A DNA stretch of 37,764 nt from Nitrospirota bacterium (GCA_016201875.1 JACQBY010000028.1:1-37764), one strand, 5' to 3'. Positions 1-16,274 are shown, numbered from the stretch's first letter. Notes: generated by a model not told the origin, from the letters alone. Made by a program: numbers and translations.

Positions 1-240
1 AAAACTTCTGACAAAGTTTAAAACTTTATCCAGCATCTGGTTGATAAATTTCTTTTCATTCGCGATGCAGACCACCCCGATAACGGCTTTTTGCCATAAA
101 TCCTGATCATCGATCTCGGCGACAGCGACATTAAACTTGTTCCGGGTCCTTTCCATCATACTTTTGATCACCTGTCTTTTATCTTTTAAAGAAAGGCTTC
201 CGGGAATATGGATCCTGAGGCTTAAAATTCCGATGACCAT
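1..240 (-). CDS. DUF503 (YlxP-like) protein, first 80 codons; the gene continues past the left edge
   Basis: Not in the ORF track because there is no stop inside the window. My translation of the minus strand from ATG 240 is MVIGILSLRIHIPGSLSLKDKRQVIKSMMERTRNKFNVAVAEIDDQDLWQKAVIGVVCIANEKKFINQMLDKVLNFVRSF. The HIPG..SLK.KR ... NKFNV.VAE.DDQDLWQ pattern and the position 8 nt downstream of infB match what I recall for DUF503. Confidence 0.7.
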   Translation of the reverse strand, partial: MVIGILSLRIHIPGSLSLKDKRQVIKSMMERTRNKFNVAVAEIDDQDLWQKAVIGVVCIANEKKFINQMLDKVLNFVRSF

Positions 241-248
241 CAGAGGAA

Positions 249-2765
249 TCAGGCCAGTTTGCCGGCGATTTTTTCTATCATATAGGCCTCGATGATATCG
301 CCGACCTTGAGATCGTTATAATTTTCGATCCCGATGCCGCATTCATATCCCGTCTGCACCTCTTTGACATCATCTTTAAATCTTCTTAATGAACCAAGTT
401 TTCCTTCGTAGACCACCACGTTGTCCCGAATTAAACGGACGCCGGCGGCGGAACGGCCAATCATCCCCTCGATCACATAACACCCGCCAATGACTCCCAT
501 CTTCGGAACGGAGAAGGTCTGCCTGACTTCCGCTTTTCCCATCGACTTTTCCTTCAGCGTCGGTTCGAGCAGGCCTTCCATCGCCGCCTTCACATCGGCA
601 ACGGCGTTATAAATAATGTTATAAAAACGGATATCGACTTTTTCCCGTTCGGCGAGCTGATTCCCTTTGGTCTCCGCCGTCACGTTAAAACCGATAATGA
701 TGGCGTTACTGGCAGAGGCGAGCAGGACATCGCTTTCGGTAATCCCCCCGACTCCGCTATGAATGACCACCACCTTGACCGCCGGCGTGGATAGTTTATG
801 CAGCGATTCCCTTAAGGCCTCTACCGAGCCTTGAACGTCTCCCTTGATCACCAGCTTGAGTTCTTTGACGTCGCCCTCTTTAATCTGGGCGAAGAGATCG
901 TCGAGTGTCACTTTTTTAGACTTCGACATTTCAATGACCCGCTGTTTCAGCGCTCTGGAAGAAGCAATATCCCTGGCGACTTTTTCTTCTTTAACGATGA
1001 CAAACGAATCTCCGGCAAGCGGAACCCCGTCGAGGCCGATCACCTCCACCGGACAGGAAGGACCCGATTCCTTGACGCTCTGGCCCAGGTCATTGATTAA
1101 CGCCCGGATTTTTCCGGAATAGATGCCGGTGACAAAATAGTCGCCGATCTGGATTTTACCTTCTGAAATCAGCACGGTTGCGACAGGGCCTCTCCCCTTG
1201 TCGAGCTTGGCCTCAATAATCCTCCCTTTTCCCAGCTTATCGGGATCGGCCTTCAATTCAAGAACTTCAGCCTGGAGGAGGATCATCTCAAGCAGGGTGT
1301 CTAACCCGGTTTTTTTCTTGGCGGAGACCTCCACGAATATGGTCTGGCCTCCCCAGGCTTCGGGGATCAATTCATATTCCGTAAGGCTTTGTTTAATCCT
1401 GTCGGGGTTTGCTTCAGGCTTGTCAATTTTATTGATGGCCACGATAATCGGGACCCCCGCCGCTTTGGCATGGTTGATCGCCTCGATCGTTTGGGGCATG
1501 ACGCCGTCATCCGCCGCCACCACCAGAACGACAAGATCGGTGACTTTCGCCCCCCGGGCTCTCATCGCCGTAAAGGCTTCGTGTCCCGGAGTATCGAGGA
1601 AACAGATTTTCTTATCGCCCACATTCACAAGATAGGCGCCGATATGCTGGGTAATCCCGCCGGCTTCCGTGTCGATCACTTTCGTTTCCCGGATGGCATC
1701 AAGCAGGGAGGTTTTCCCATGGTCGACATGCCCCATAATGGTAACGACCGGCGGACGGGGCTGCAGGTTCTCCCCCTGACCGCCCCCTGACTCCATCAGT
1801 TCATCTTCTGTCTTATCCAGGACGACTTCAATCTTAATTCCAAACCCTTCGGCGATCAGCGATGCGGCGTCCAGATTAATCATCTGATTGATATTGGCCG
1901 TAAATCCCATCTCCATCAGCCTTGAAATGAGCACCCCTCCTTTGATTCCTGTTAATTCAGCAAACTCTTTCACAGTGGTCCCTTCGGTGAGCTTGATGAC
2001 TTTTTTGCGGGGTTTGGTGATATCCAATACCGGCGCGGGCTGAAACGCTTTCCTCGGACTCTTCCGGTCGTCCCTCTTATGAATCGGCTTGAAATCCTGC
2101 CACTCTCTGGTATCTGAAACGACTTCGGCAAGGGTCCCCTCTTTGTCCCGTTTTGCTTTTTTAACCTTTTTATATTTTTCCTTGATTTTTGCCAGGGACT
2201 CTTTTTGGAGAGCCAGTTCTTCTTCTGCTTTCTTTTTCGCCTTTTCATCCAATTTTTCAGGAGCAGGCGAAGGGAGCGTCGAGGGAGCAGTTCCCGGACC
2301 AGAGGCCTGAACCGGCAAAGAAGGAGGCTCCATCTCCTGGATGGCAGTTTCTGACAGAGGAAGCGTTTCCGCTTTTTGAGATCTCACGGCGGTCAAATCA
2401 GGGGAGGGTAAAACTTCTTCAACCCGCGGGGAAGGAGGTAGCTCCAAAACAGCAGGCTCTTCGACCTTCGGCTTTTTCTTTAAGAGCATTCTCGGTTTCT
2501 TTTCGACCGGCTTCTCTTCTTCTATTATCTTTTTTGCCGGGGCCCCTTTTGACTTTTCTTTCACTGTTTTAGGAGCGGGTTCCGCCTTCTTTGAAGTTTC
2601 TTTTTTAGCGGCCCCTTTACCGGAAACTTTATGGGTAATCACACTGATATCGGCCTCGTCGATGGCGCTCATATGATTGGTTACTTTAATCCCCAGGTCC
2701 TGAATGACCGTCACAAGGTCTTTGCTTCCGATTCCTAACTTTTTTGCCAGTTCAAACACTCTCAT
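249..2765 (-). CDS. infB: Translation initiation factor IF-2
   Basis: 838-aa ORF with a Lys/Pro/Glu-rich N-terminal linker. The GTPase core has G1 GHVDHGKT, G3 DTPGH and G4 NKID, followed by IF-2 C-terminal domains. Canonical rimP-nusA-infB order. Confidence 0.97.
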
Positions 2766-2836
2766 CTTTTATTTTTCCAAAAATCCCGTCTAATAACCAT
2801 CACCATAAAACGGCTTATCCTGCAAATGATCCCTGT

Positions 2837-4162
2837 TTAATCTTTGATCTTTAAAAGACCCATCGCTGATTCGATCAGCTTCCTGGCGGTTTTTTCCCCG
2901 ATCAGAGGAATATCGCTCAACTGAGCCTCAGTCGCTTCCGCAATTTTTTCAAGCGAATCAAATCCATGTTCTCTCAAGGCTTCTTCGAGTTTTTCCCCCA
3001 CTCCCGGAAGATCTGATACTTTCGGGAGAATATTCTGAGAAAGAGATTCCTGCTCTTTCATCTCCTGAGCTTTTTGCTCCTGCGCAAATGCGAGAGAAAC
3101 CTCTTTTTCACGCTCTTTCGAACGCTCCTTCTCGTATTCGCTTTCATTGATAATATCGATCTTCCAATCGGTCAGTTTGGAGGCCAGCCTGACATTCTGC
3201 CCCTTCTTGCCGATGGCCAGAGAAAGCTGGCTGTCCGCAACCACCACGATGGCAGACCTTTCTTTTTCGTTAATTCCGACTTTTTCCACCATGGCAGGGC
3301 TCAGCGCTTCTCCGATAAATGTCCGGGGGTCTTCCGTCCAGGTAATAATATCGATTTTCTCCCCCCTGAGCTCTCGGACGACAGACTGCACACGGCTCCC
3401 TTTGACGCCGACGCAGGCTCCGACGGGGTCTACCGACGACTCTTTTGAAACAACGGCAATCTTGGTCCGGTCTCCCGCTTCTCTGACAACCGCTTTGATC
3501 TGGACAATCCCTTCATTAATTTCAGGGACTTCGATCTCGAACAACCTTGCCACAAATTCTGGAGCGCTTCTCGATAAAATAACCTGCGGCCCCTTCGACG
3601 AGCTTTTCACCTCGAGCAGATAGGCCCGGATCCTGTCTCCCCGATGAAAAGTTTCCCGGGGAATTTGTCCCTGACCGGGCAACAAGGCTTCTGTTTTTCC
3701 GACTTCAACAATAAAATTACGCCGTTCCTGGCCTAAAATCGTGCCGGTGACAATTTCACCGATCCGGCTGCCGTATTCTTTTTGAACCGCTTCCCATTCC
3801 GCTTCTCTGACTTTTTGGAAAATGACCTGTTTGGCCGTTTGGGCGGCAATCCTTCCAAACTCTTCCATTTCAAGTAAAAGCCCGATTTCATCCCCATATT
3901 CAGCCGCCTCGTCAACTTTGACAGCTTCTTCAAGAGAAATCTCGGCTTTAGGGTTTGTGACGACCTCAACGATTTTTTTCAATGAGATGATTTCGATTTC
4001 ACCTGTTTCAGGATCAAGTTTGACCTGGATGTTTTCCGCGGAACCATGTTTTTTCCTGGCAGCTGATAAAATAGCGGCCTCCACGGCTTTAACGATTTTT
4101 TCGCCGGGTATTCCTTTATCTCTTTCAATTTGCTGAATGACAGATAGTAGCTCGCGATTCAT
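2837..4162 (-). CDS. nusA: Transcription termination/antitermination factor NusA
   Basis: N-terminus MNRELLSVIQQIERDKGI, S1 and tandem KH regions, C-terminal helix-hairpin-helix segment (LPGVGEKLEEAL...IPLIGEKTARKL). I prefer ATG 4162, which has AAGGGGA about 8 nt upstream, over the track's 4195. Confidence 0.93.
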   Translation of the reverse strand: MNRELLSVIQQIERDKGIPGEKIVKAVEAAILSAARKKHGSAENIQVKLDPETGEIEIISLKKIVEVVTNPKAEISLEEAVKVDEAAEYGDEIGLLLEMEEFGRIAAQTAKQVIFQKVREAEWEAVQKEYGSRIGEIVTGTILGQERRNFIVEVGKTEALLPGQGQIPRETFHRGDRIRAYLLEVKSSSKGPQVILSRSAPEFVARLFEIEVPEINEGIVQIKAVVREAGDRTKIAVVSKESSVDPVGACVGVKGSRVQSVVRELRGEKIDIITWTEDPRTFIGEALSPAMVEKVGINEKERSAIVVVADSQLSLAIGKKGQNVRLASKLTDWKIDIINESEYEKERSKEREKEVSLAFAQEQKAQEMKEQESLSQNILPKVSDLPGVGEKLEEALREHGFDSLEKIAEATEAQLSDIPLIGEKTARKLIESAMGLLKIKD

Positions 4163-4254
4163 TATAATTTTCCCCTTTTTCTGGTCCCTTATCAACGGCC
4201 AGGGTTTTTCGATGACCTCATCGTCTTACATGCCGATGATATATTATAAAGTTC

Positions 4255-4740
4255 TTATCCGGCGGCTTCGAGATTGGCCGATGCTATATTTTCAAATAAA
4301 ATCTCAATATTCTTTTTCTTTTTTTGATCCGTTATTAAGAGATCTATAGTCCCATTTTCGGCGACCGAAATCAACTGTCCGGTAAAAACTTTCTGGCCTT
4401 CAACCAAATGGACGGTTTTTACCCGAATCCGCTGGCCTTCAACCTTTTGAAAATCTTTAATTTTCTTTAACGGACGGTCAATTCCGGGAGAGGAGACTTC
4501 CAGCGTATAAGCGTGGTCGATAAAGTTGTAGACATCCAGGGCGGGGCCGATATTCCGGCTCGCCTTTGTACAATCCTCCAGTGTCACTCCTCCCGGTTTA
4601 TCAATAAACACTCTTAAAACTCCCATCCGGGCGTTCCCCGCATATTCAAGGTCATACAGCTCCAGATCAAGCGAATTTAAGATAGAAACAATCGTCTCTT
4701 TTATCCGGGAAAGCTGATCCTCCATCGTCGCAATCAACAA
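4255..4740 (-). CDS. rimP: Ribosome maturation factor RimP
   Basis: 161-aa ORF directly upstream of nusA. Contains LELYDLEY...LRVFIDKPGGVTLEDC and EVSSPGIDRPL, motifs typical of RimP/YhbC. Confidence 0.88.
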   Translation of the reverse strand: MLIATMEDQLSRIKETIVSILNSLDLELYDLEYAGNARMGVLRVFIDKPGGVTLEDCTKASRNIGPALDVYNFIDHAYTLEVSSPGIDRPLKKIKDFQKVEGQRIRVKTVHLVEGQKVFTGQLISVAENGTIDLLITDQKKKKNIEILFENIASANLEAAG

Positions 4741-4777
4741 AATTTAATCAAAACCTCTGAATTAAAAACAGACGTTA

Positions 4778-4810
4778 AACAAAAAAAGTGGGCGAAAAAC
4801 AAGCCCACTT
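4778..4810 (-). terminator. Rho-independent terminator (minus strand)
   Basis: An 8-bp stem, aagtgggc (4786-4793) / gcccactt (4803-4810), with a 9-nt loop. On the minus strand it is followed by a T run (complement of a4781-4785). It lies about 60 nt downstream of the stop codon of the displaced aminotransferase 3' remnant. Confidence 0.6.
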
Positions 4811-4871
4811 TCATCGAAAACTCCTATGAAATCGTTTACTTATACCATACAGATTTTTGAATTGCAAGCCC

Positions 4872-5177
4872 TATTCACGAAGGGTCAAGGTCACGTCATT
4901 CTGTGATTAAACTATTTAAGATATCAGGGGTTCTTGCAATAATTCAATTCGTCATTCCCGAATGTCAAGAAAAAATGAAATAAAAGAAAGGGTCCATTTT
5001 ATTGACATAGTAAAGTTTGGGATGGCACTTGGCCTCCCTCTTCATATTCAATATGATGGGGCTGTGTACTCGGACCCCTCATGGAACCCTCTGTGCAATT
5101 CCTATCTCTGTTCTTGGTCACAAAGGGTCATGGCCTCGAACTCTTTCATGAGGGTCTGCGTAATAGCGCCCGTGACG
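4872..5177 (-). pseudogene. Displaced, interrupted 3' remnant of the class IV aminotransferase gene
   Basis: 4870-4884 (cctattcacgaaggg, including the stop codon cta) equals 5948-5962. 5130-5172 is identical to 5965-6007. Joined together, the two pieces read ...AITQTLMKEFEAMTLRE*, compared with ...AITQTLMKEFEAIALRE* in the intact gene. Confidence 0.65.
5130..5172. repeat. 43-bp perfect direct repeat, copy A (candidate att-like junction)
   Basis: atggcctcgaactctttcatgagggtctgcgtaatagcgcccg is identical to 5965-6007 in the same orientation. Confidence 0.9.
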
Positions 5178-5367
5178 GATTCGATGAAAATTGGGAAATT
5201 TATTCCCGGAAAGTGGATTAAACCGAAAAGGCGGCAGAGGCGGAGGGGGTTACGGGGGGGTTCTATTCAGACCAGCATTCTAGTTGTAATGGGAGATGTT
5301 TTTGTGCTGTAAGTGGAAATTTAATTATTGGTGCATTTTTATCCGAATAACTATCCAGTGTTCAATA

Positions 5368-5670
5368 TTATACCAACGTACTTGCTTTCAGTAGACGTTT
5401 CCCATGGACAACTCCGATCACCTTAACTTCGTCACTTTGTGAATCAATACGATAAATTACACGATAACTATCAACAATAATTTCTTTATGTGGAAGATTT
5501 GGAAATTCTGGAAGGGGCCGACCAGATTCAGGGAACTGACTCAAACGTTCTGCAGATTTATAAATACTTTCTACTTGATGCCGGGCATACAAAGGTGAGT
5601 CTCTGGCAATGAAATCATATATACTCTCCAAATCCGCAACGGCTTCCTCGCTCCATATCAGCTCTGCCAT
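5368..5670 (-). CDS. Type II toxin, ParE/RelE family
   Basis: 100-aa ORF. The sequence LIWSEEAVADLESIYDFIARDSPLYARHQVESIYKSAERLSQFPESGRPLPEF...HKEIIVDSYRVIYRI..DEVKVIGVVHGKR is the typical ParE/RelE plasmid-stabilisation-toxin pattern. It overlaps the upstream small ORF by 13 nt. Confidence 0.88.
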   Translation of the reverse strand: MAELIWSEEAVADLESIYDFIARDSPLYARHQVESIYKSAERLSQFPESGRPLPEFPNLPHKEIIVDSYRVIYRIDSQSDEVKVIGVVHGKRLLKASTLV

Positions 5671-5846
5671 TTCTCTGATAACCTTTTCATTGCATTGGTA
5701 TGAGAAAGGATTTTCCCCTCCTTAATATCTGTTTCGCCTGCCTCTATTTTTTCAAGAAGGTAAAGCCGATACATTACTTCTTCTGTATCCACGACATCAG
5801 GAAGTTCTTTAAAAAGGCTTTCTAATCTTGATTTTGCAATGTTCAT
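5658..5846 (-). CDS. Putative antitoxin of the ParE/RelE pair
   Basis: 62-aa ORF immediately upstream of the toxin and overlapping it. Strong SD (aaggag, complement of 5853-5858) 6 nt before the ATG. The C-terminal ...ILSHTNAMKRLSEKW resembles small antitoxins paired with RelE/ParE genes. Confidence 0.7.
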   Translation of the reverse strand: MNIAKSRLESLFKELPDVVDTEEVMYRLYLLEKIEAGETDIKEGKILSHTNAMKRLSEKWQS

Positions 5847-6853: not shown

Positions 6854-9046
6854 TTAATTTCCCCCTCTAACCCTTTTAACCTGAACAACGCTCTCCAATT
6901 TCTCAATATTTTTAAAAACCCTTTCTAAATGCTGGAGATCTTTTATTTCAATGATAAAGATAAGCGTCGCTTTTTTATTCTCGGCCGAGGTGGTGATTTC
7001 AGCATGGCTGATATTGGCTTCCGATGAGGAAATCGCCTGAGAAACGCTCGCCAGAATGCCTGGTTTATCTACCGTCACCACGGAAATCTTCACAGGATAG
7101 GTTGAATCTGTCCGGGTTTCCCAATCGACATCGACGATTCTTTCTTTATCATAATCGAGCTCGTCGATGTTGGGGCATTCTACGGAATGGATCGATAAGC
7201 CTCTCCCTCGCGTGATGAATCCGATAATGGGGTCTCCGGGAACGGGATTGCAGCACTTGGAAATATGAGTCAGAATATCATGCATCCCCGTGACTTTGAC
7301 CCCCTCTTTTTCCATTCCCGGCTTTTTAGCCGGTTTATCTTTTACGCCCTCTTTTAAAGGTTCTTGCGGGAGAAGTTTTTGAATGACCTGATGGGGGGAA
7401 ATCTTGCCGTAACCCAATAAAACCCACAATTCTTCCACAGATAAAACGCCCAGTTCCTTTAAAATCGTTTGGAAATGCTCGCTCTTCAGAGGAGCGGAAG
7501 GATTGAGATGGTTTCTTCTGAACTCTTTTTCGAGAAGTTTTTTTCCGATTTCAAGGCTTCTCTTTCTCTCTTCAACGGAAATCCAATGTTTAATTTTTGT
7601 TTTTGCCCGGGGAGTTTTGACCCATTTCAACCAATCTTTATTGGGGTACTGCGTGGGGGAAGAGAGGATTTGCACCATATCCCCGTTTCTCAGTTCATAC
7701 CGGAGCGGAACGATCTTGCCATTTACTTTTGCCCCGGTACAGTGGTCGCCGATTTCAGTATGAATACTATAAGCAAAGTCGATGGGGGTCGACCCTTTGA
7801 CCAATTCCTTGACGGCGCCTTTGGGAGAAAAAACATAAACCACCTCGGCAAATAAATCCATTTTCACCGAGTTCATAAACTGCCGGTTGTCTGAAAGGTC
7901 CCTCTGCCATTCAACCAGTTGACGCAACCAGGCGAATACAGCGTCGTTCTTCTCGTCAAAACTCCCTTTTTCCTTGTATTTCCAGTGCGCCGCGATACCT
8001 TCCTCGGCGGTTTGATGCATTTCGGCAGTTCTAATCTGAAATTCAACCCGTTCCCCGCCCGGCCCGATGACCGTCGTATGGAGGGACTGGTAGAGGTTCG
8101 ATTTCGGAACGCCGATATAATCTTTAAACCGCCCCGGAACCGGTTTCCAGAGAGAATGAATCAGCCCCAGAATGGCATAGCAATTGAATTTCGTATCGGT
8201 AATAATCCGGATCGCCGCAAGATCAAATACTTCCTCAAAGGAGATGCCGTTTTTTTCCATTTTCTGGTAAATACTGAAGATATGTTTAGAGCGTCCGGTG
8301 ACGTCTGCGGTAAAATGATTTTCTTTAAGGTTCTTATTGATGATGTCGACGACTTCTTTGATATAGGCTTCACGGTCTTCTTTTTTCCTGGCTATTTTTT
8401 TGACCAGGCCGAAATAAACCTCATGCTTCAGGTAGCGGAGACAGAGGTCTTCAAGCTCCGCTTTCATCCAGCCGATCCCGAGCCGGTTGGCCAGCGGGGC
8501 GTAGATTTCGAGGGTTTCTCTTGCAATCCGCTTTTGTTTGTCTTCGGGGAGATATTCCAGCGTCCTCATATTATGGAGCCGGTCCGCAAGTTTGATCAGA
8601 ATAACCCGAATGTCTTTGGACATCGACAGAAGCATTTTTCTAAAGTTTTCGGCCTGCTTCTCTTCGGCGCTGGTAAACTTTATTTTCCCTATTTTAGTCA
8701 CCCCTTCGACGAGATAGGCGACGGTTCCGCCAAACTCGCGGACAACTTCTTCCTGGGTCAAAGAGGTGTCTTCCACCGTATCGTGAAGCAAACCGGCTGC
8801 AATCGACGGGACATCAAGCCTCAGATGGGTCAGAATAAGAGCCACTTCAAGGGGATGTTCCACATAAGGGTTACCCGATTTACGGATTTGATCTCCGTGA
8901 GCCTGCAACGACTTTTCGTAGGCCTTTCGAATTAAAGAGACCTCTGCGGCGGGATTGTACTCCAAAACCTTTTCCAGGATATCTTCGATATGGACGCTTG
9001 CTCTTAACATAGAGTTCTGCTCTGGCATAAGATAAGGGCTGATCAA
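6854..9046 (-). CDS. relA: Bifunctional (p)ppGpp synthetase/hydrolase (RelA/SpoT homologue)
   Basis: 730-aa ORF. HD hydrolase motifs (EHPLEVA, LHDTVEDT), synthetase region (GRSKHIFSIYQKM, DLAAIRII, EFQIRT), a TGS-like region and a C-terminal ACT-like domain. The true start may be Met13 (9010). Confidence 0.95.
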   Translation of the reverse strand: MISPYLMPEQNSMLRASVHIEDILEKVLEYNPAAEVSLIRKAYEKSLQAHGDQIRKSGNPYVEHPLEVALILTHLRLDVPSIAAGLLHDTVEDTSLTQEEVVREFGGTVAYLVEGVTKIGKIKFTSAEEKQAENFRKMLLSMSKDIRVILIKLADRLHNMRTLEYLPEDKQKRIARETLEIYAPLANRLGIGWMKAELEDLCLRYLKHEVYFGLVKKIARKKEDREAYIKEVVDIINKNLKENHFTADVTGRSKHIFSIYQKMEKNGISFEEVFDLAAIRIITDTKFNCYAILGLIHSLWKPVPGRFKDYIGVPKSNLYQSLHTTVIGPGGERVEFQIRTAEMHQTAEEGIAAHWKYKEKGSFDEKNDAVFAWLRQLVEWQRDLSDNRQFMNSVKMDLFAEVVYVFSPKGAVKELVKGSTPIDFAYSIHTEIGDHCTGAKVNGKIVPLRYELRNGDMVQILSSPTQYPNKDWLKWVKTPRAKTKIKHWISVEERKRSLEIGKKLLEKEFRRNHLNPSAPLKSEHFQTILKELGVLSVEELWVLLGYGKISPHQVIQKLLPQEPLKEGVKDKPAKKPGMEKEGVKVTGMHDILTHISKCCNPVPGDPIIGFITRGRGLSIHSVECPNIDELDYDKERIVDVDWETRTDSTYPVKISVVTVDKPGILASVSQAISSSEANISHAEITTSAENKKATLIFIIEIKDLQHLERVFKNIEKLESVVQVKRVRGGN

Positions 9047-9115: not shown

Positions 9116-10273
9116 CTACCGCTCTGGATGCCGCCTGTCATGCTTTAACGGATCCAGGGGGAGATGAAGGGTAAAGGTGGTTCCTTTAGACAACAGGGAT
9201 TTGACGTCGATCGAACCGCGATGCTGATCAATGAATTGATGGCAGGCCATGAGTCCCAGGCCGGTTCCCTCCTGCCGGGTCGTAAAAAAGGGATTAAACA
9301 ATTTTTGAAGGTTTTCTTCCGAGATGCCGCAGCCGGTATCGGAGATCATAATCTGCACCAGCCTGTCGCTAAACTTTTCCGTTGTGATCGTAATCGTTCC
9401 TTCCCCGGTCGCCTGAATCGCATTTAAAATCAAATTAATCACCACCTGTTTGATTTTCTCGGAATCCAGAATAACAGGAGGAATCTCCCTGGACAGATGG
9501 GTCAGAATGGAAAGGTTTTTCTTTGCCGCTTCTTTCTCCAGAAGCGAGACGGTCTCCTTGATCAGAAGGTTCAAATCAGCTCCGGCGAGAGATAATTTAG
9601 AATCTCCCGTGTTTTTTGAATAGGAAAGCAACTCTGAAATAATCTGCCGGATTCTAACAACATCCTTGCAGGCCACCTGATGGAACCTTTTCCAAAAATC
9701 GGGATCTTCCTCTGTTTTCTTTTGGGGGGCCATTTCCAAAAAGGTCTGAATCGCAACAAGAGGGTTATTAATTTCATGAGCCATCCCCGCCGCCAGAATC
9801 CCTATCGCCCCCAGCCGGTTCGTTCTCGCCATCTTTTGCATGGTCTTGATTTTCTCGGAATAAAGCCGGTCTCTTTCCTGAATCAAAAAGTATCTCTCTA
9901 TTCCACTCCTGAGATATTGCTTTAGTTGAAGCGGTTCATAAGGCTTTTCGACGCATTGATAAATCTGCCCGAAATTGACCGCATCCATCAGGGTTTTCAA
10001 ATCGATAAAGGCAGTCATCAGCATTCTGACTATATCAGGCCTTTTTTCCGCGACTTTTTGAAGAAGTTCAACGCCTGTCATCCCCGGCATTCTTTGATCC
10101 GTTAAAACCAGTGCGATTTCGGGATGATGCTCGATTAACTCAAGGGCTTCTTCTCCCTTTCCGGCAGTCAAAACAGTCAATTCTGTTCCAAAATACCTTT
10201 GAAAAACTTCAAGTCCGACTTCTTCATCGTCAACGTATAGTATGGAGTACTTCCTGTAATTCAGGTCTTTCAT
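9116..10273 (-). CDS. Receiver-histidine kinase hybrid (REC-HisKA-HATPase)
   Basis: N-terminal REC (ILYVDDE...LVLTDQRMPGMTG...K), H-box GMAHEINNPL, N box INLILNAIQA, G boxes SDTGCGI and GTGLGL. Confidence 0.9.
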   Translation of the reverse strand: MKDLNYRKYSILYVDDEEVGLEVFQRYFGTELTVLTAGKGEEALELIEHHPEIALVLTDQRMPGMTGVELLQKVAEKRPDIVRMLMTAFIDLKTLMDAVNFGQIYQCVEKPYEPLQLKQYLRSGIERYFLIQERDRLYSEKIKTMQKMARTNRLGAIGILAAGMAHEINNPLVAIQTFLEMAPQKKTEEDPDFWKRFHQVACKDVVRIRQIISELLSYSKNTGDSKLSLAGADLNLLIKETVSLLEKEAAKKNLSILTHLSREIPPVILDSEKIKQVVINLILNAIQATGEGTITITTEKFSDRLVQIMISDTGCGISEENLQKLFNPFFTTRQEGTGLGLMACHQFIDQHRGSIDVKSLLSKGTTFTLHLPLDPLKHDRRHPER

Positions 10274-10300
10274 TCGGCTCCAGAGCTAAATAAAATAGGG

Positions 10301-13300
10301 TTAACGAGTCTGTTGAACAGGATGTTCTTTCGGAATAAATCCAGGATTGGACCGGGTGGCCGGAAGCGAAACAATCATTTCCGTTCCTTCATTTTCTATG
10401 CTTTTGACGGTAATCGAACCATGATGCGCCTGAATCACCTGGTAGGCCAGAAAAAGCCCCAAACCCATCCCCTCCCCAACATTCCTTAAGGTAAAAAACG
10501 GTTCAAATAAATGTTCCAGCTTTTCTTTTTTAATTCCCCGGCCATTATCCTTAATTGAAACCCAGACTCTATCTTCACCATCGTTCCAGGTTTTGATCCA
10601 GATTAAACCTCGTTCTCCGACTGCTCTTACAGCGTTATCAAGAACCACTTCAAACAACTGGCTTAATAAAAGAGGCATTCCTTCGATTTCTCTATTCAAA
10701 TGATAATCTTTAAAAAAAGTAATCCTCTCTTTTGGAAAAGAGGGATTCATCTCTTCGAGCCGGGCGACGGACCGTTCAATTAAACGGGTCAGGGAAAGCC
10801 TTTCAAAGTGAAGGGCCCGGCTGCCATCAAAAACTTTAAGCCGGTTAACGACCTCCTGAATCCGGTCGATCCCTTTTTTAACGATTTCAAGCGCCGGTCC
10901 GGCCGTTTTGATCAAACCGGTCAATTCCTCCCTGTGGCTTGTTATTTCTGAAGAATCCCCGATCGCCTTAAACCGTTCAAAAGCTTCAGAAATGATCTCC
11001 CAGGATGTCCGGGTAAAACTCACGGGATTATTGATCTCATGAACCACTCCTGCAACCATCACCGCCATGGCCGCCATTTTCTGGGAGTGGGCGCTCTCCT
11101 TTTCAAGCTCCTTTAACTTCAGGAGGGACCTGACCCTCGCGGTTAATTCTTCCATATTAAACGGTTTGGTTAAATATTCATCCGCGCCATGTTCAAAACC
11201 TTCAATTTTGTTTGAGGCCTCTGATTTTGCCGTCAGAAGAATGACCGGAATATGGCCGGTTCTTTTATCGGCTTTCACTTCTCTGCAAAGCTGATAACCA
11301 TCTTTTAAAGGCATCATGACATCCGAAATGATAAGATCCGGCATATAGGCTCTGGCCGACTGAACCCCCTCGACCCCGTTCTTTGCCATTAATACGGAAT
11401 ACTCTTTTCTAAGAATGGAACAAATGAAGTTTTGCATCTGTAGATCATCTTCTGCAATCAGGATCTGATACTGCTTCTTTTTTCCGCTTTCGGGTTTTTC
11501 TTCTCCCTGTTCCGGTTTTATCCAGTCCGAAGATTGATAAAGGGCGCTGACAGAAAGGGATTTCGTTAAATCTTCACTCCTCCGCTTTAGATTTGTTTCG
11601 AACTCCACTTCTCTCCGGTCTTTATGGTCTTCAACATCTTCAATTTCCATCACCAAAGGAAGAGTGAAAATAAAAACCGATCCTTTATCCAATTCGCTCT
11701 CTACCCAGATTTTCCCCTGATGCATTTCAACAAATTCTTTGCAAAGGGCCAGCCCGAGGCCGGACCCCTGGTATTTCCGGCTTGAAGAGCTGTCTACCTG
11801 AGTAAACCGTTCAAAGATCTTTTCCAGATAAGAGGCCGGCACTCCGATTCCGGTATCCCGGACTCTGGCTTCTATCAACCCCCCTTTTACCTCCAGGGAA
11901 ATCCAGATAGATCCTTCGGAACCGGTAAATTTCAGCGCATTTGAAATCAGATTGATCAATACCCGTTCAATTTTTTCCCTGTCAAAATAAAATTCAGGAA
12001 TTTCGGATTCTGCCGAATAAGTCAATCGGATATTGCGTTTATCCGCCATTAAAGAGAGCGAAGAAACAATCCCCTGGACAATCAGGTTCAGATCATATTT
12101 ATTTTTAAACACCGCCATCTTGCCCGCATCGGTTTTTGCCAGATCCAGAAGGCCGTTGATCAGGTTCAACAGGCGGAGTCCGTTTGCCCGGACGGCTGTT
12201 AAACTCTTTTTCATTTCAGGAGATACAGCGCCATATTCATTATTTAAGATCATTTCAAGAGGAAGCAAAATAAGGGTTAATGGCGTTCGAAGCTCATGGT
12301 TCACATTGGCAAAAAACTCGGTCTTCAGCCGGTCCAGTTCTTTTAATTTGGCATAAGACTCTTCCAGTTCTTTTTTACTTTCAGCTAATTCCCGGGTACG
12401 TTCTTCTACCTTATTTTCAAGCTCTTGACCCCATGTTTTTAATTCCTGTGACATTTTATTGACATCGTCATAAAGAAGAGAATTACTTAGCGCAATAGAA
12501 GCCTCAGTTCTTAAATTGGAAAGGAAGTCAATATCCATTTTTGAAAAAGGCTTGAGGTTATCCTTTTCTCCCAAATTAATGATACCAATCAAGTTTCCGT
12601 CGTGAATCAAAGGGATGGCGACTTTCGCATTAAATTTCTGGAAATAGGATCGAGCCAGGGAACGAACGTTTTCAAATTGAGGATTAAATTCAACCTCCTC
12701 CCGCTCAATCACACTATCGTGTTCTTTCATACAGGCCAGACAGGGATCATTCAAGCTTAGAATCTCATCTGTTCCAACCACTTTATAATTCTGGTTTTTA
12801 TCGCTCCAAAGAATTAACGTTATTTTAGAAACATAAAGCGCTTCTTTGATGGTCGCCGCAATTTTTTCTATTAACCTGTCCAGATTTTTTAATGCGGCAA
12901 GTTCTTTTACCATCCCTTGAAGAATCTTCTGCATATCATATTTGCGCCGTTGAAAAAGGTGATCTATTCGAGGCTGAATAAATTTAACATAAGGTATTAA
13001 TAAAACTGTTACCGCCCATACATACAGAGAAAGCTGAACAGGTGTTAAACGGCTAATCCAAAGATGACCGATATAAAATATTCCGGCAATCGGAAATAAG
13101 ATGAGGGATGAGATTCCTACCCACATTAATGTTTTATGAATTACTGTCGATATGTCCATGAATTTATATCTAATGATGGCATAGCCTGTTATGAAAAAGT
13201 AAAGAGGTACGATAAAAACACCATATGGATAGAATTTAATACCAAAAGTTGGAATAAAGGTGGTAGAGCCACCTGTATAAGTAATTAACCATGACAATGC

Positions 13301-13813
13301 CACATATAAAATCATCGGTTTTGAAGTATTTGAAGAAGCCTGAAATGCTATCTTAAGCTGGTAAAGAGTAAATATAACCATGCTGAAGAAGAATAAGGAA
13401 AAGGGAAACATGAGGTATCCTGCTTCAGTATAGTAATTGAAGTCCAGGATCGGTCTAACACCTTTGAGAAAAAGATTCCCAAAAATATCAAAAGGGACAA
13501 GCAATGATGCAAATATGTAAGCTGTCTTAAGAAAGGTTTTATTTAGCTTTTCTCTGCCAACGAAAGCCAAGGTTGCTTGGCAATGCACAACAGATATATA
13601 AATTGCAGGTAAAAAGAGTGCCTTCCCCCAAAATAATGCATCAATTTCTCGAGAACTTTTCAGCATCATTCCAAAGCTAAAACTCCATAAGGCGAATATA
13701 ATGGTGGAAAAAAGATAAAGTCTATTTACCCTATTTTTGTGATCTTTCAGAAAAACGAAAAGCCCTAGCACTAAACTTAAAAGAGTGTTTGTAAATAAGA
13801 ATATTTTGATCAA
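10301..13813 (-). CDS. Multidomain sensor kinase: 7TM (HisKA_7TM-like) - GAF - HisKA/HATPase - REC - second HisKA/HATPase
   Basis: 1170-aa ORF. About 7 hydrophobic helices in aa 1-285, ending in RYKFMDI. GAF-like segment (aa ~300-450) and a coiled coil. H-box NVNHELRTPL (His506) with G boxes DTGIGV and GSGLGL. REC (ILIAEDD...LIISDVMMPLKDG...LTAK). Second H-box VVHEINNPV with DNGRGI and GMGLGL. Confidence 0.9.
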   Translation of the reverse strand: MIKIFLFTNTLLSLVLGLFVFLKDHKNRVNRLYLFSTIIFALWSFSFGMMLKSSREIDALFWGKALFLPAIYISVVHCQATLAFVGREKLNKTFLKTAYIFASLLVPFDIFGNLFLKGVRPILDFNYYTEAGYLMFPFSLFFFSMVIFTLYQLKIAFQASSNTSKPMILYVALSWLITYTGGSTTFIPTFGIKFYPYGVFIVPLYFFITGYAIIRYKFMDISTVIHKTLMWVGISSLILFPIAGIFYIGHLWISRLTPVQLSLYVWAVTVLLIPYVKFIQPRIDHLFQRRKYDMQKILQGMVKELAALKNLDRLIEKIAATIKEALYVSKITLILWSDKNQNYKVVGTDEILSLNDPCLACMKEHDSVIEREEVEFNPQFENVRSLARSYFQKFNAKVAIPLIHDGNLIGIINLGEKDNLKPFSKMDIDFLSNLRTEASIALSNSLLYDDVNKMSQELKTWGQELENKVEERTRELAESKKELEESYAKLKELDRLKTEFFANVNHELRTPLTLILLPLEMILNNEYGAVSPEMKKSLTAVRANGLRLLNLINGLLDLAKTDAGKMAVFKNKYDLNLIVQGIVSSLSLMADKRNIRLTYSAESEIPEFYFDREKIERVLINLISNALKFTGSEGSIWISLEVKGGLIEARVRDTGIGVPASYLEKIFERFTQVDSSSSRKYQGSGLGLALCKEFVEMHQGKIWVESELDKGSVFIFTLPLVMEIEDVEDHKDRREVEFETNLKRRSEDLTKSLSVSALYQSSDWIKPEQGEEKPESGKKKQYQILIAEDDLQMQNFICSILRKEYSVLMAKNGVEGVQSARAYMPDLIISDVMMPLKDGYQLCREVKADKRTGHIPVILLTAKSEASNKIEGFEHGADEYLTKPFNMEELTARVRSLLKLKELEKESAHSQKMAAMAVMVAGVVHEINNPVSFTRTSWEIISEAFERFKAIGDSSEITSHREELTGLIKTAGPALEIVKKGIDRIQEVVNRLKVFDGSRALHFERLSLTRLIERSVARLEEMNPSFPKERITFFKDYHLNREIEGMPLLLSQLFEVVLDNAVRAVGERGLIWIKTWNDGEDRVWVSIKDNGRGIKKEKLEHLFEPFFTLRNVGEGMGLGLFLAYQVIQAHHGSITVKSIENEGTEMIVSLPATRSNPGFIPKEHPVQQTR

Positions 13814-13829
13814 GAAAAGATCCTCTTAA

Positions 13830-15626
13830 TTAATTTGTAAGATTGAATCTCTCACCTATATCTTTAAATACAGTTAAAGCAATATCAAGATCTTCAATTG
13901 AATTTGTTGCAATAGGAGCAAGTCGAAGTCTAGCTTCTCCTCGTTTAACAGCGGGTCTGCCAATTGCTCCAACGAAAACACCCCTCTCCTGCATGGCCCC
14001 AGCAACTTGATGCGCAAGTGCCTCGTCTCCAATTATGACTGGAATGATTTGTGTCGTACTTGTCCCTAGATTAAAACCCATTTTTAAAAGCCCACTTCGA
14101 AGATATTTTATATTGAACCAAAGCTTTGGAATTAACTCCTTATCAGATTCTAGAACATCTAAAGCAGCGAGCACGGTAGCGCAAATTACAGGGGTAAGAC
14201 TTGTTGTAAAAAGCGACATCATAGAAAAGTATCTTAAATAATTTATTGTTTCCTTGCTACCTGCCACATATCCTCCAATACTCGCAAGCGCCTTTCCAAA
14301 GGAGTCTGTCACAATATCTACTTGTCCTTCGATCTGAAAATGGCTAAGACTTCCCTTTCCATTTACACCTAGAACGCCAGAACCAAATACATCATCAACT
14401 AAAAGAACCGCATTATATCTTTTAGCTAATTTGCAAATTTCACTCAGATTCGCAAGATCTCCATCCATACTGAACACACTATCCGTTATAATAATTTTTT
14501 TATAAATTGCATACACATTTAACAGCTTTTCAAGGTGTTCCATATCATTGTGTCTATAAACTCTTACTCGCGATTTCGAGGCTCTACATCCTTCAAAGAG
14601 ACTTATGTGATTCTTTGCATCATTTAGAAGAACAAAATCTTCTCTAAAAAGAGTCGATATTGCTCCTACATTCGCCATAAAACCCGTACTAAATAGAATT
14701 GCATCTTCCATTGATTTAAACTTTGCCAGCCGTTCTTCTAACCTTTTATGAAGATCAAAAGTTCCTCCTAAAACATTGGGACTTCCCGCTCCTGTTCCAT
14801 ATTTCTCAATCGCCTTAATTGCCGCTTCTTTCACCCTAGGATCTGAAGCAAGACCTAAATGATCATTAGAAGAAAGCATAATTAACTTCTTGCCCTTTAA
14901 GGTAATTCTTGGACCACACCCAGAATCAACGACTCTAGCGTAGGTATGTCTCTCTGCCCATTTATGTAAAGTTTCGTTTGTTCTCTTAATGGAATCATGA
15001 AAACTCTCATTTTGAGTCAATAAATTCACATCTCTTAATTCACCAGTGTCTTCAATAGCTTTATAGTTCCCCATGCTAGGTTTCTCATGAATTCGAGATG
15101 ACTGATCGAGAAGATTTATATCCTTTTCGGTCAGAGGTTCTTTAGAAAATAGAATATTCAATAAAGATTGTTTTTGTATTATAGAACTCTGCTTGAATTC
15201 CTGAATTGCAAAGCTTAATATTTTTTGTTCCCAATCCTTATCCTTAATTTCAGAAAACTTAAGTCTTATTGCATTTTCTCGAGAAGAGATAACAACTGCT
15301 GCAATTTTGATATTGCAGGCCTGTGCAAAGTTAAATCTAAGCGACAGAGCCGTACCAGCGTTTAAATTAACATCGCAAAATACTAGAAGACCGTTAGGAC
15401 TAATGTCGTGGGTATAGCCAAAAATTTCTTTCTTATCTAGCCGCAAGCAAACGGGGATTTTGAACTGCTCCCGCTCATAATTGCGGATTTGCTCCGCAAG
15501 GCGCCTTCTTTCGTTAGAGATTGCTGTTTCATTTTGCCGTTGCTCGGCCATCCTTCTCTCTTTCAAATTAATAGGTAAAGTCTGCTTTCTTCTTTCATAA
15601 AATATTGTGTTTTCAGATAACATCAT
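13830..15626 (-). CDS. PilZ domain fused to an alpha-oxoamine synthase family PLP enzyme (BioF/KBL/SPT/CqsA family)
   Basis: 598-aa ORF. PilZ signatures R48-NYE-R52 (RxxxR) and D74-ISPNG79 (DxSxxG). The C-terminal ~375 aa carry SSNDHLGL, NHISLFEG, SVFSMDGD, VDDVFGSG and DSFGK445 (PLP lysine). The start could also be Met26 (15551). Confidence 0.8.
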   Translation of the reverse strand: MMLSENTIFYERRKQTLPINLKERRMAEQRQNETAISNERRRLAEQIRNYEREQFKIPVCLRLDKKEIFGYTHDISPNGLLVFCDVNLNAGTALSLRFNFAQACNIKIAAVVISSRENAIRLKFSEIKDKDWEQKILSFAIQEFKQSSIIQKQSLLNILFSKEPLTEKDINLLDQSSRIHEKPSMGNYKAIEDTGELRDVNLLTQNESFHDSIKRTNETLHKWAERHTYARVVDSGCGPRITLKGKKLIMLSSNDHLGLASDPRVKEAAIKAIEKYGTGAGSPNVLGGTFDLHKRLEERLAKFKSMEDAILFSTGFMANVGAISTLFREDFVLLNDAKNHISLFEGCRASKSRVRVYRHNDMEHLEKLLNVYAIYKKIIITDSVFSMDGDLANLSEICKLAKRYNAVLLVDDVFGSGVLGVNGKGSLSHFQIEGQVDIVTDSFGKALASIGGYVAGSKETINYLRYFSMMSLFTTSLTPVICATVLAALDVLESDKELIPKLWFNIKYLRSGLLKMGFNLGTSTTQIIPVIIGDEALAHQVAGAMQERGVFVGAIGRPAVKRGEARLRLAPIATNSIEDLDIALTVFKDIGERFNLTN

Positions 15627-15674
15627 GCACCTCCCTCTGGGATTAAGAAAATATAACTAGGAATTTTATTTAAA

Positions 15675-15899
15675 CTAATACAAACGTATTAATTTGTGAG
15701 ACCCCTCTCCCTCCCCCTCAAGGGGGGAGGTTTGGAGAGGGAGAACATCGGATGTAGACACTGCCATGCCTTTATTGCTAATATCAAAAGCCTCCCCTTT
15801 GTATATTATTGGTTTTTTTGTTTCGGGATCTCTAAGCTGTATGAATACCTCTAATAAATGTTTTACACGATGAGTTTCTCGGCGATCTGATTTAACCAT
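15675..15899 (-). CDS. Short PilZ-domain ORF, probably C-terminally truncated
   Basis: 74-aa ORF with RRETHR (RxxxR) and DISNKG (DxSxxG). Only 33 aa follow the second motif, and the last ~20 codons are encoded by a G/C palindromic element. Confidence 0.5.
   Translation of the reverse strand: MVKSDRRETHRVKHLLEVFIQLRDPETKKPIIYKGEAFDISNKGMAVSTSDVLPLQTSPLEGEGEGSHKLIRLY
15702..15743. repeat. Imperfect G/C-rich palindrome (REP-like hairpin)
   Basis: ccctctccctccccc-tcaa-ggggggagg-tttg-gagaggg. The inner stem is cctccccc/gggggagg and the outer stem is ctctc/gagag with a bulge. It lies inside the 3' end of the short PilZ ORF. It occurs once in this window. Confidence 0.55.
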
Positions 15900-16274
15900 T
15901 TATCTTTCTACCTCTCTATAAATAATAATAAACAATAGCTTATATTTTAATTTCGGGGGGGAATTAGAAATACATTGATAGAATAAAATCGAAAGGAATT
16001 TGCTAGGGTGAATATCATACAATGTTAGATGCTTCTCCCTTATTTGATGAGAAACTAACAGCTCTTTATCGCACTCATAAAATGAACCTGATTCTTTTAG
16101 AGAATATCAAAAATCGTTGATTTGTCAATTGAAAGTATGATTAAGGGTGTTTTTATTTTTTTCAATTTCTGTCTGATCTGGCTAAATGGAGTGAGGCCAA
16201 AGCAACGGAACTTGGCTATTTTTATATTTATCTTAAATTAAGACTTTATCACAAACGACAGGAATGATGACCCT

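Follow-up and report, generated by a model that had tools for sequence, protein, structure and literature searches.

A Nitrospirota operon with a PilZ-tagged alpha-oxoamine synthase and a matched seven-transmembrane kinase: a candidate c-di-GMP-gated lipid signalling cassette

In a contig of a Nitrospirota bacterium (GCA_016201875.1, JACQBY010000028.1:1-37764), here called the window and analysed over its whole length of 37,764 nucleotides, we describe a three-gene operon that encodes an alpha-oxoamine synthase (AOS) fused to a PilZ domain, a membrane hybrid kinase with a seven-transmembrane (7TM) sensor bundle and two kinase cores, and a soluble protein with receiver and histidine kinase domains (REC-HK). 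We propose, and give the proposal about an even chance, that cyclic di-GMP (c-di-GMP) gates the synthesis of a hydrophobic product and that this product is read by the matched 7TM kinase. The balance is likewise even on whether the operon belongs to a rare family of cassettes, each of which would pair an acyl-lipid enzyme carrying a c-di-GMP-receptor tag with a 7TM kinase matched to that enzyme. Two observations carry the proposal: the enzyme gene and the kinase gene adjoin each other in independent loci, and the enzyme domain and the 7TM bundle are exchanged jointly between related cassettes.

The four same-strand open reading frames (ORFs) reported by the first-pass annotation at a spacing of 16 to 48 nt, that is, a short PilZ-like ORF followed by the three genes named above, were all found on the minus strand with gaps of 48, 16 and 27 nt, and Pfam returned the same composition as that annotation had proposed (PilZ-alpha-oxoamine synthase, 7TM-GAF double kinase, receiver-kinase protein; Table 1). 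In the synthase, a PilZ domain (PF07238) was recognized at residues 46-139 with 48.4 bits against a cut-off of 22.5. It contains both c-di-GMP binding motifs, R48NYER52 and D74ISPNG79, whose patterns RxxxR and D/NxSxxG are conserved across the family, and by this match the N-terminal module is a putative c-di-GMP receptor. The module is not confined to synthases. Among proteins with five different enzyme domains it is 29-43% identical, and the non-AOS proteins encoded ahead of orthologous double kinases share 36-43% identity with the N-terminal 170 residues of the window enzyme. A search of 1.84 billion representative proteins gave only 66 matching clusters, with a PilZ match in 38 of the 41 longer ones. 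The fusion partners in this set were AOS, beta-ketoacyl synthases (KAS) I/II and III, acyl carrier protein (ACP), HMG-CoA reductase and TenA/heme-oxygenase-like domains, together with methyltransferases, a thioesterase, a LuxD-type acyltransferase, aldehyde dehydrogenase and acyl-CoA dehydrogenase. Judged from these partners, the N-terminal module is a rare, putative c-di-GMP-receptor tag dedicated to acyl-lipid enzymes. No PilZ-enzyme fusion of this kind was met in the full-text literature searched.

The survey of gene neighbourhoods proposed in the first-pass annotation showed that the adjacency of enzyme and 7TM kinase recurs as a conserved unit in metagenomic loci. Since it was found in independent loci at 44-62% identity, the arrangement is not due to chance. 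An AOS gene lies directly 5' of a HisKA_7TM kinase gene, and in the same direction, in the window and in L001, L004/5, L006, L007-9, L010, L011, L101 and L118. The same three genes are present in L001 (55% identity); in L004/5, L006 and L007-9 the PilZ-AOS gene is followed by a 7TM-GAF kinase gene running off the contig end; L010 encodes a FadL/TodX channel in addition to PilZ-AOS and a HisKA_7TM kinase; and L011 has an AOS, a 1408-aa 7TM-GAF kinase and a REC-HK protein. The only exception is L002, where a different 7TM kinase gene adjoins the AOS gene divergently. In L101 and L118 an AOS without PilZ is encoded ahead of the matching kinase. The L011 AOS (locus 116-5761) has kept an Arg-rich N-terminus and lost the PilZ barrel, and the 7TM region of the L011 kinase is apparently duplicated. 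Among the matches listed when genome contigs were searched with the PilZ-AOS alignment, none carried PilZ; they were generic AOS proteins, all at or below 43% identity.

A scan of metagenomes with the sensor region returned 80 loci, and these revealed that orthologous double kinases and REC-HK proteins are also preceded by N-module proteins lacking an AOS domain. In these the module is fused to a heme-oxygenase/TenA/CADD-like domain (L093, L097, L098), to KAS III (L095, L156, L175), to a methyltransferase (L096) or to HMG-CoA reductase (L099). In L175 (2117-4052; Nitrospirae metagenome-assembled genome GCA_016178565.1) an ACP gene lies directly 5' of the PilZ-KAS III gene, which hints that the cassette enzyme may work on ACP-bound acyl chains.

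The correspondence between enzyme and sensor was examined in the subfamily of double kinases, whose parts outside the 7TM provide an internal control, because a test of enzyme class against 7TM over the entire dataset is confounded by orthology of whole operons. Among 13 double kinases, the 7TM core (residues 1-195) was 35-79% identical in the 16 pairs with the same enzyme and 21-31% identical in the 62 pairs with different enzymes, without any overlap. In contrast, the values for the GAF region overlapped fully (24-69% versus 18-77%), and no kinase part other than the 7TM bundle co-varied with enzyme type. The pattern is clear in individual pairs: the kinases of L006 (AOS) and L093 (heme-oxygenase-like) are 31% identical in the 7TM and 72-78% in GAF, first kinase core (HK1), receiver (REC) and second kinase core (HK2), whereas those of L093 and L097, both next to heme-oxygenase-like enzymes, are 63% identical in the 7TM and 36% in GAF. 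Sliding windows placed the mosaic boundary at residues 200-270 of the kinase. Grouped by GAF similarity, the kinases fall on at least two cytoplasmic chassis; the AOS with its 7TM, and likewise KAS III with its 7TM, are each present on both. Over nine AOS cassettes, AOS identity followed 7TM identity with a Spearman coefficient of 0.875, against 0.50 for the rest of the kinase, in pairs that are not independent and to which no probability is attached. A prospective check gave the same result: from its 7TM (32% identical to that of the window) and GAF (59%), the kinase P0124 was predicted not to follow an AOS gene, and its upstream gene encodes PilZ-KAS III.

The enzyme domain and the 7TM are inherited jointly, whereas neither the PilZ module nor the GAF domain, which flank them on the outside, is inherited with them. 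Repeated breakpoints on both flanks, and never between enzyme and 7TM, argue for selection against separating an enzyme from its membrane sensor. Most simply, such a pairing would be explained if the hydrophobic product of the enzyme, or less likely its substrate, were what the 7TM bundle senses. A kinase that detects an exogenous hydrophobic compound, taken up through FadL where this is present, with the enzyme processing the compound or an acyl-CoA derivative of it, would account equally well for the co-variation. FadL/TodX-family outer-membrane channels do occur in 6 non-redundant related clusters, and in operons for the uptake of hydrophobic substrates TodX-type channels occur together with two-component systems, a precedent that we count for substrate sensing. 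Nevertheless, the enzymes (AOS, KAS, HMG-CoA reductase, methyltransferase) are biosynthetic, that is, they condense, reduce or methylate and are not catabolic, and the window contains no FadL, acyl-CoA ligase or beta-oxidation genes. We therefore consider substrate sensing improbable and keep the reading of a sensed product.

Concerning the enzyme itself, the first-pass annotation had likened the synthase-kinase arrangement to those of the autoinducer synthases CqsA and LqsA, and a kinship of the synthase with these enzymes was not borne out. An Aminotran_1_2 domain (PF00155) was identified at residues 247-585 (174.6 bits), and Lys445 aligns with the Schiff-base lysine Lys236 of BioF. The window AOS scored below every curated NCBIfam cut-off: 387 against 535 for the BioF/Kbl-related subfamily model, 378.7 against 460 for 2-amino-3-ketobutyrate CoA ligase (KBL; NF005394), 364.2 against 426.45 for BioF (TIGR00858), 363.2 against 640 for the best serine palmitoyltransferase (SPT) model, that of Bacteroidetes, and only 223.5 against 428 for the CqsA/LqsA type (NF005526). 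Among PDB entries the best matches were Thermus ThAOS (7poa, 291 bits) and Sphingobacterium multivorum SPT (SmSPT; 3a2b, 286), followed by E. coli KBL (253), BioF (about 200-215) and 5-aminolevulinate synthase (ALAS, about 180-205), with CqsA as the weakest AOS (139). A neighbour-joining tree of 69 sequences (388 columns, 100 bootstraps), including E. coli BioF and Kbl, ThAOS and SmSPT, recovered a kinase-linked clade of P0001-P0009 and L101 with 97% bootstrap; the window enzyme is P0001. Within the tree it lies on the SPT side, and the separation of this side from Kbl, ThAOS and BioF was recovered in all 100 replicates. The phylogeny that had been called for thus showed no clustering with BioF or KBL; as the tree was built without CqsA, LqsA and ALAS, kinship to CqsA and LqsA was judged on the scores of the profile models and PDB entries. 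On this comparison the window AOS is neither a CqsA/LqsA relative nor an orthologue of KBL or BioF, and its SPT-side position points to a long-chain acyl substrate.

An ordinary KBL, BioF or sphingolipid SPT lying beside kinase genes by coincidence would fit the fact that the models of these enzymes score best in NCBIfam and that the catalytic Lys, the Asp and the stacking His are present. We nonetheless regard it as highly improbable, in view of the sub-threshold scores, the separate kinase-linked clade, the PilZ fusion and an altered active site. Moreover, related loci retain the adjacency, which co-varies with the 7TM, and no bio, tdh or sphingolipid/ceramide genes are found in the window, in agreement with what the first-pass annotation had stated on housekeeping neighbours.

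Pfam delimited in the 1170-aa kinase HisKA at 497-564, HATPase_c at 611-720, the receiver at 784-895 and a second HATPase_c at about 1050-1150. The HisKA_7TM match (PF16927, residues 6-221) reached 25.8 bits, below its cut-off of 28.6, with orthologues at 39-64 bits. An AlphaFold model of residues 1-460 (pLDDT 87.6) contains seven transmembrane helices, a beta hairpin (116-131), a further pair of long helices and the GAF domain. In a Foldseek comparison of this model with solved structures, no 7TM match was obtained and only the GAF domain was matched (to GAF domains, cAMP-binding ones among them). As a sensor domain HisKA_7TM is widespread in bacteria and archaea; in the full-text literature searched it was met only in census or review mentions, and no ligand for it was found there. 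The 385-aa protein consists of REC, HisKA and HATPase_c, and it has orthologues in L001, L093, L096, L097 and L011. All the phospho-acceptors are present (His506, Asp831 and His925 in the kinase, Asp59 and His166 in REC-HK), as are the DxGxG and GxGLGL boxes in all three kinase cores.

The scheme that we infer, including the identity of the product, its sensing by the 7TM, the gating by c-di-GMP and the order of phosphotransfer, would be as follows. From an amino acid and an acyl thioester, a cytoplasmic SPT-like AOS would form a hydrophobic alpha-aminoketone by condensation. The PilZ module would put this synthesis, or the docking of the synthase at the kinase, under c-di-GMP control, so that binding of c-di-GMP would permit or tune the condensation. 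The product would enter the membrane, where the adjacent kinase would sense it through its HisKA_7TM bundle, and phosphate could then pass from His506 of HK1 to Asp831, to His925 of HK2, to REC-HK (Asp59, His166) and finally to a regulator encoded elsewhere. Such a product could be either shared between cells, as an autoinducer, or read by the producing cell alone, as a lipid feedback.

Several observations weigh against this scheme. Neither a response regulator with an output domain nor a diguanylate cyclase is encoded in the operon. Part of the joint inheritance of enzyme and 7TM could be simple linkage; the enzyme domain, at the 3' end of the synthase gene, and the 7TM, at the 5' end of the kinase gene, are contiguous in DNA. 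Related kinases without an upstream enzyme gene exist (L174), the absence of such a gene at P0122 indicates that the pairing is not universal, and all the related loci are uncultured metagenomic contigs. The other points lie in the active site. His340, Ser386, Asp411, Lys445 and Arg566/Arg568 are retained in the window AOS, and Phe414 occupies the position of the histidine at O3' of pyridoxal phosphate (PLP; BioF His207, SpSPT His234). The His-Ala-Ser (HAS) triplet reads H-I-S in the window and H-[IYVT]-S over the core clade, the arginine of the G-x-x-R motif is lost, and DS(F/L)GK replaces GT(F/L)SK. In SpSPT, His234 forms a hydrogen bond with the PLP hydroxyl, and the HAS triplet has been called strictly conserved (PMC6148460). 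For mutants of the O3' histidine, such as H282A in ALAS, no account of the effect was found in the library searched. Given Phe414, catalysis is not to be assumed, and the window AOS may be slow, altered or non-catalytic; with the residues retained, catalysis is plausible. A model of the whole synthase, obtained from an alignment of 8 sequences, had a mean pLDDT of 52.7 and was not used.

Phe414 would favour an adaptor, whose N-terminal module would bind to the kinase, for instance at a receiver as HapZ does on SagS, and link c-di-GMP to the phosphorelay; the enzyme-like domain would then be a metabolite-binding input or a regulated cargo and would not produce the ligand of the kinase. Phe is found at the PLP-O3' position not only in the window enzyme but also in its three closest relatives (P0002-P0004), and Gln in P0006. 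The rarity and dedication of the N-module family, its 29-43% identity over five enzyme fusions and the Arg-rich N-terminus retained without a barrel in L011 would also suit an adaptor, and PilZ-kinase adaptors are already known (HapZ-SagS in Pseudomonas). However, most family members have the full catalytic set including the histidine, which is present in P0005, P0007, P0008, L101 and all the outgroups, and among the members of the Phe414 type Lys445, Asp411, His340 and the phosphate-binding residues are invariant. Enzyme type follows the membrane-embedded 7TM and not the REC, GAF or HK parts that would suit cytoplasmic docking, and AOS proteins lacking PilZ are still encoded ahead of matching kinases. 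An adaptor role is accordingly judged unlikely, and synthesis of a sensed product is kept as the working scheme.

Beyond the double kinases, distant relatives of the sensor with a single kinase also directly follow lipid-type enzyme genes. In 23 loci the upstream gene was classed as START plus SDR (short-chain dehydrogenase/reductase), and 26 upstream proteins of this type cluster together; other upstream types were 3-beta-HSD/epimerase, HMG-CoA reductase, B12 radical SAM, GNAT, GMC oxidoreductase and methyltransferases. The genes of these distant relatives are often clustered with those of several 7TM kinases, FadL channels, KAS and acyltransferases. Long same-strand clusters of this sort, with three to five HisKA_7TM kinases each, were seen in L116 (6884-21314) and also in L104, L109, L122 and L125; START-SDR, KAS and acyltransferase genes lie between these kinases, as do single receivers and a FadL/TodX channel. 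Genes of about 463 aa downstream of distant kinases were considered as NtrC-type regulators, and this was ruled out by Pfam, which identified them as FadL channels or further 7TM kinases. In P0145, P0147, P0154, P0167 and P0170 the 7TM-GAF sensor is joined to an output of the SpoIIE phosphatase or HD-GYP (c-di-GMP phosphodiesterase) type, with no kinase. In L118 the third gene after the AOS and the 7TM-GAF double kinase (13808-15499) encodes a receiver fused to a beta-ketoacyl synthase, and a lipid-condensing enzyme appears to be the immediate end point of the phosphorelay at that locus.

The short PilZ ORF of the first-pass annotation exists only in part as described. It carries the motifs R7ETHR (RxxxR) and D39ISNKG (DxSxxG), but only the N-terminal half of PilZ is matched, at 21.8 bits against the Pfam cut-off of 22.5. 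No homologue of it was present in any related locus, and it was left uncalled as a gene by NCBI on L176, a sister contig from a second assembly in which the stretch is 100% identical. It is probably a truncated remnant. The G+C-rich hairpin at its 3' end (CCTCCCCCC-TTGA-GGGGGAGG) lies within a 141-nt region (15620-15760, minus strand) whose fold has a z value of -4.27, and a pyrimidine tract there could base-pair with the Shine-Dalgarno sequence that precedes the synthase. The hairpin may be either an insertion that cut short the ORF or a translational control element.

Upstream of the operon, in the interval before the divergent ABC-F gene, a sigma-70-like TTGACA-16-TATTCT sequence with an extended TG was located at 16128..16101 as a consensus match alone, and Rfam identified no riboswitch in this interval (15900..16274). 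The G+C content at third codon positions (GC3) was 0.26-0.38 from the synthase gene to the GAF domain of the kinase, and also in the short ORF, with its minimum in the AOS domain; it rose to 0.45-0.47 in HK1, REC and HK2 and to 0.53 in REC-HK, and was 0.50-0.61 in the housekeeping neighbours. This break inside the operon fits a mosaic origin of its 5' part. The neighbouring genes in the window encode IF-2, NusA, a class IV aminotransferase, RelA/SpoT, ABC-F, IlvD, RtcB, glycogen-related proteins and RHS proteins. The RelA/SpoT (p)ppGpp synthetase/hydrolase gene (6854-9046, minus strand) begins 69 nt after the operon on the same strand, with a weak terminator-like hairpin in between (9067-9053); this adjacency is not kept in L001, L093 or L096. 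At the other end of the window, a c-di-GMP-I riboswitch (RF01051, 42.6 bits against a cut-off of 35) was identified at 37197-37279 (minus strand), just 5' of an RHS-family gene (36098-37102) that is followed by the gene for a 1400-aa RHS-repeat/CARDB protein (31259-35461). The riboswitch indicates that the organism uses c-di-GMP, and the riboswitch-RHS unit would be a second, independent c-di-GMP output on the contig.

Table 1. Positions of the operon genes, their domains and associated elements in the window
Feature	Position	Strand	Basis or remark
Intergenic region between operon and divergent ABC-F gene; likely promoter region	15900..16274	minus	
Short PilZ-like ORF, 74 aa	15899..15675	minus	ORF call, Pfam
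G+C-rich hairpin, 3' end of short ORF	15706..15734	minus	Unique in the window
PilZ-fused alpha-oxoamine synthase (AOS), 598 aa	15626..13830	minus	Pfam, NCBIfam
N-terminal regulatory module, aa 1-170 of synthase	15117..15626	minus	Three invariant Arg-Arg pairs, PilZ barrel, C-terminal helix
AOS catalytic domain, aa 211-598	13833..14996	minus	Alignment and neighbour-joining tree
Membrane hybrid double kinase HisKA_7TM-GAF-HK-REC-HK, 1170 aa	13813..10301	minus	Pfam, model
HisKA_7TM sensor bundle, aa 1-225	13139..13813	minus	Co-varies with enzyme type
GAF domain, aa 301-450 (Pfam 311-442)	12464..12913	minus	Pfam, Foldseek
First kinase core, HisKA and HATPase_c, His506	11639..12346	minus	Pfam
Internal receiver, Asp831	11129..11464	minus	Pfam
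Second kinase core, HEINNP H-box His925 and HATPase_c	10346..11101	minus	Pfam
Soluble REC-HisKA-HATPase_c protein (REC-HK), 385 aa, Asp59 and His166	10273..9116	minus	Pfam

Taken further, the cassettes might represent a new modular family of lipid-based signalling between cells, or between cell and membrane, in which a c-di-GMP-gated synthase and its 7TM receptor are swapped as a unit between kinase chassis; this wider reading we hold only tentatively and think rather doubtful. If it were true, private and chemically distinct channels would be built on AOS, KAS, HMG-CoA reductase, methyltransferase and diiron oxidase chemistry, and the orphan HisKA_7TM domain would gain its first ligand class. 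The swapping of cassettes in which enzyme and sensor move jointly would illustrate the origin of new signalling specificities. In a PilZ module reserved for acyl-lipid enzymes, c-di-GMP signalling would likewise have a new output branch. The matched enzyme beside each HisKA_7TM type offers a direct route to ligands, and the setting is one of uncultured Nitrospirae and related phyla, in which signalling is little known.

Concerning known systems, the operon resembles CqsA/CqsS of Vibrio and LqsA/LqsS of Legionella in that a PLP enzyme of the AOS family is encoded beside a polytopic sensor kinase without a large periplasmic domain, and in that the predicted product would be a hydrophobic acyl-derived aminoketone or hydroxyketone. 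It differs from them because the window enzyme scores outside their group, carries a PilZ module and has Phe at the PLP-O3' position; the sensor combines HisKA_7TM with a GAF domain, two kinase cores come after it, and the enzyme class is exchangeable between orthologous cassettes. In the staphylococcal agr system, a contiguous stretch of variable DNA between conserved flanks spans the signal-making part and the membrane sensor half of the kinase, so that maker and sensor diversify together. The joint diversification seen in the cassettes is analogous; agr, however, varies a peptide and its processing, whereas the cassettes swap whole enzyme classes of lipid-type chemistry. The RpfF/RpfC system of Xanthomonas, which produces diffusible signal factor (DSF), also combines a fatty-acid-type synthase with a multi-transmembrane hybrid kinase and shows cross-talk with c-di-GMP, but its enzyme is a crotonase, its sensor is different and c-di-GMP acts downstream through RpfG, whereas in the window the PilZ domain is on the synthase. 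Among solved structures, SPT (3a2b) and ThAOS (7poa) are the closest relatives of the window enzyme, which lies on the SPT side and yet differs by its sub-threshold SPT scores, PilZ fusion, altered active site and lack of nearby ceramide genes. HapZ-SagS of Pseudomonas aeruginosa provides a case of a PilZ c-di-GMP receptor tied functionally to a hybrid histidine kinase; HapZ, however, is a stand-alone PilZ protein without an enzyme domain and without known 7TM co-variation, and docking in the window is hypothetical.

By gene order, the nearest operon-level analogue is phcBSRQ rather than cqs or lqs. This quorum-sensing operon of Ralstonia encodes a synthase, a membrane sensor histidine kinase and a soluble receiver-plus-kinase protein without a DNA-binding domain (PMC8578825). 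The window presents the same order of synthase, membrane kinase and REC-HK, and cassettes with a methyltransferase exist (L096 and others). In contrast to phcBSRQ, the window synthase is an AOS and not a methyltransferase, a PhcQ-like single receiver is missing, and a PilZ module and a GAF domain are present. The synthase-and-sensor logic that the first-pass annotation read in this region thus finds support in the conserved adjacency and in the co-variation of enzyme and 7TM, and loses its link to CqsA and LqsA; its statement that no system of this composition had been described agrees with the full-text literature searched. Operons joining a synthase to a sensor kinase are known, and what appears to be new here is the PilZ tag, the HisKA_7TM sensor and an enzyme and sensor exchangeable as one unit.

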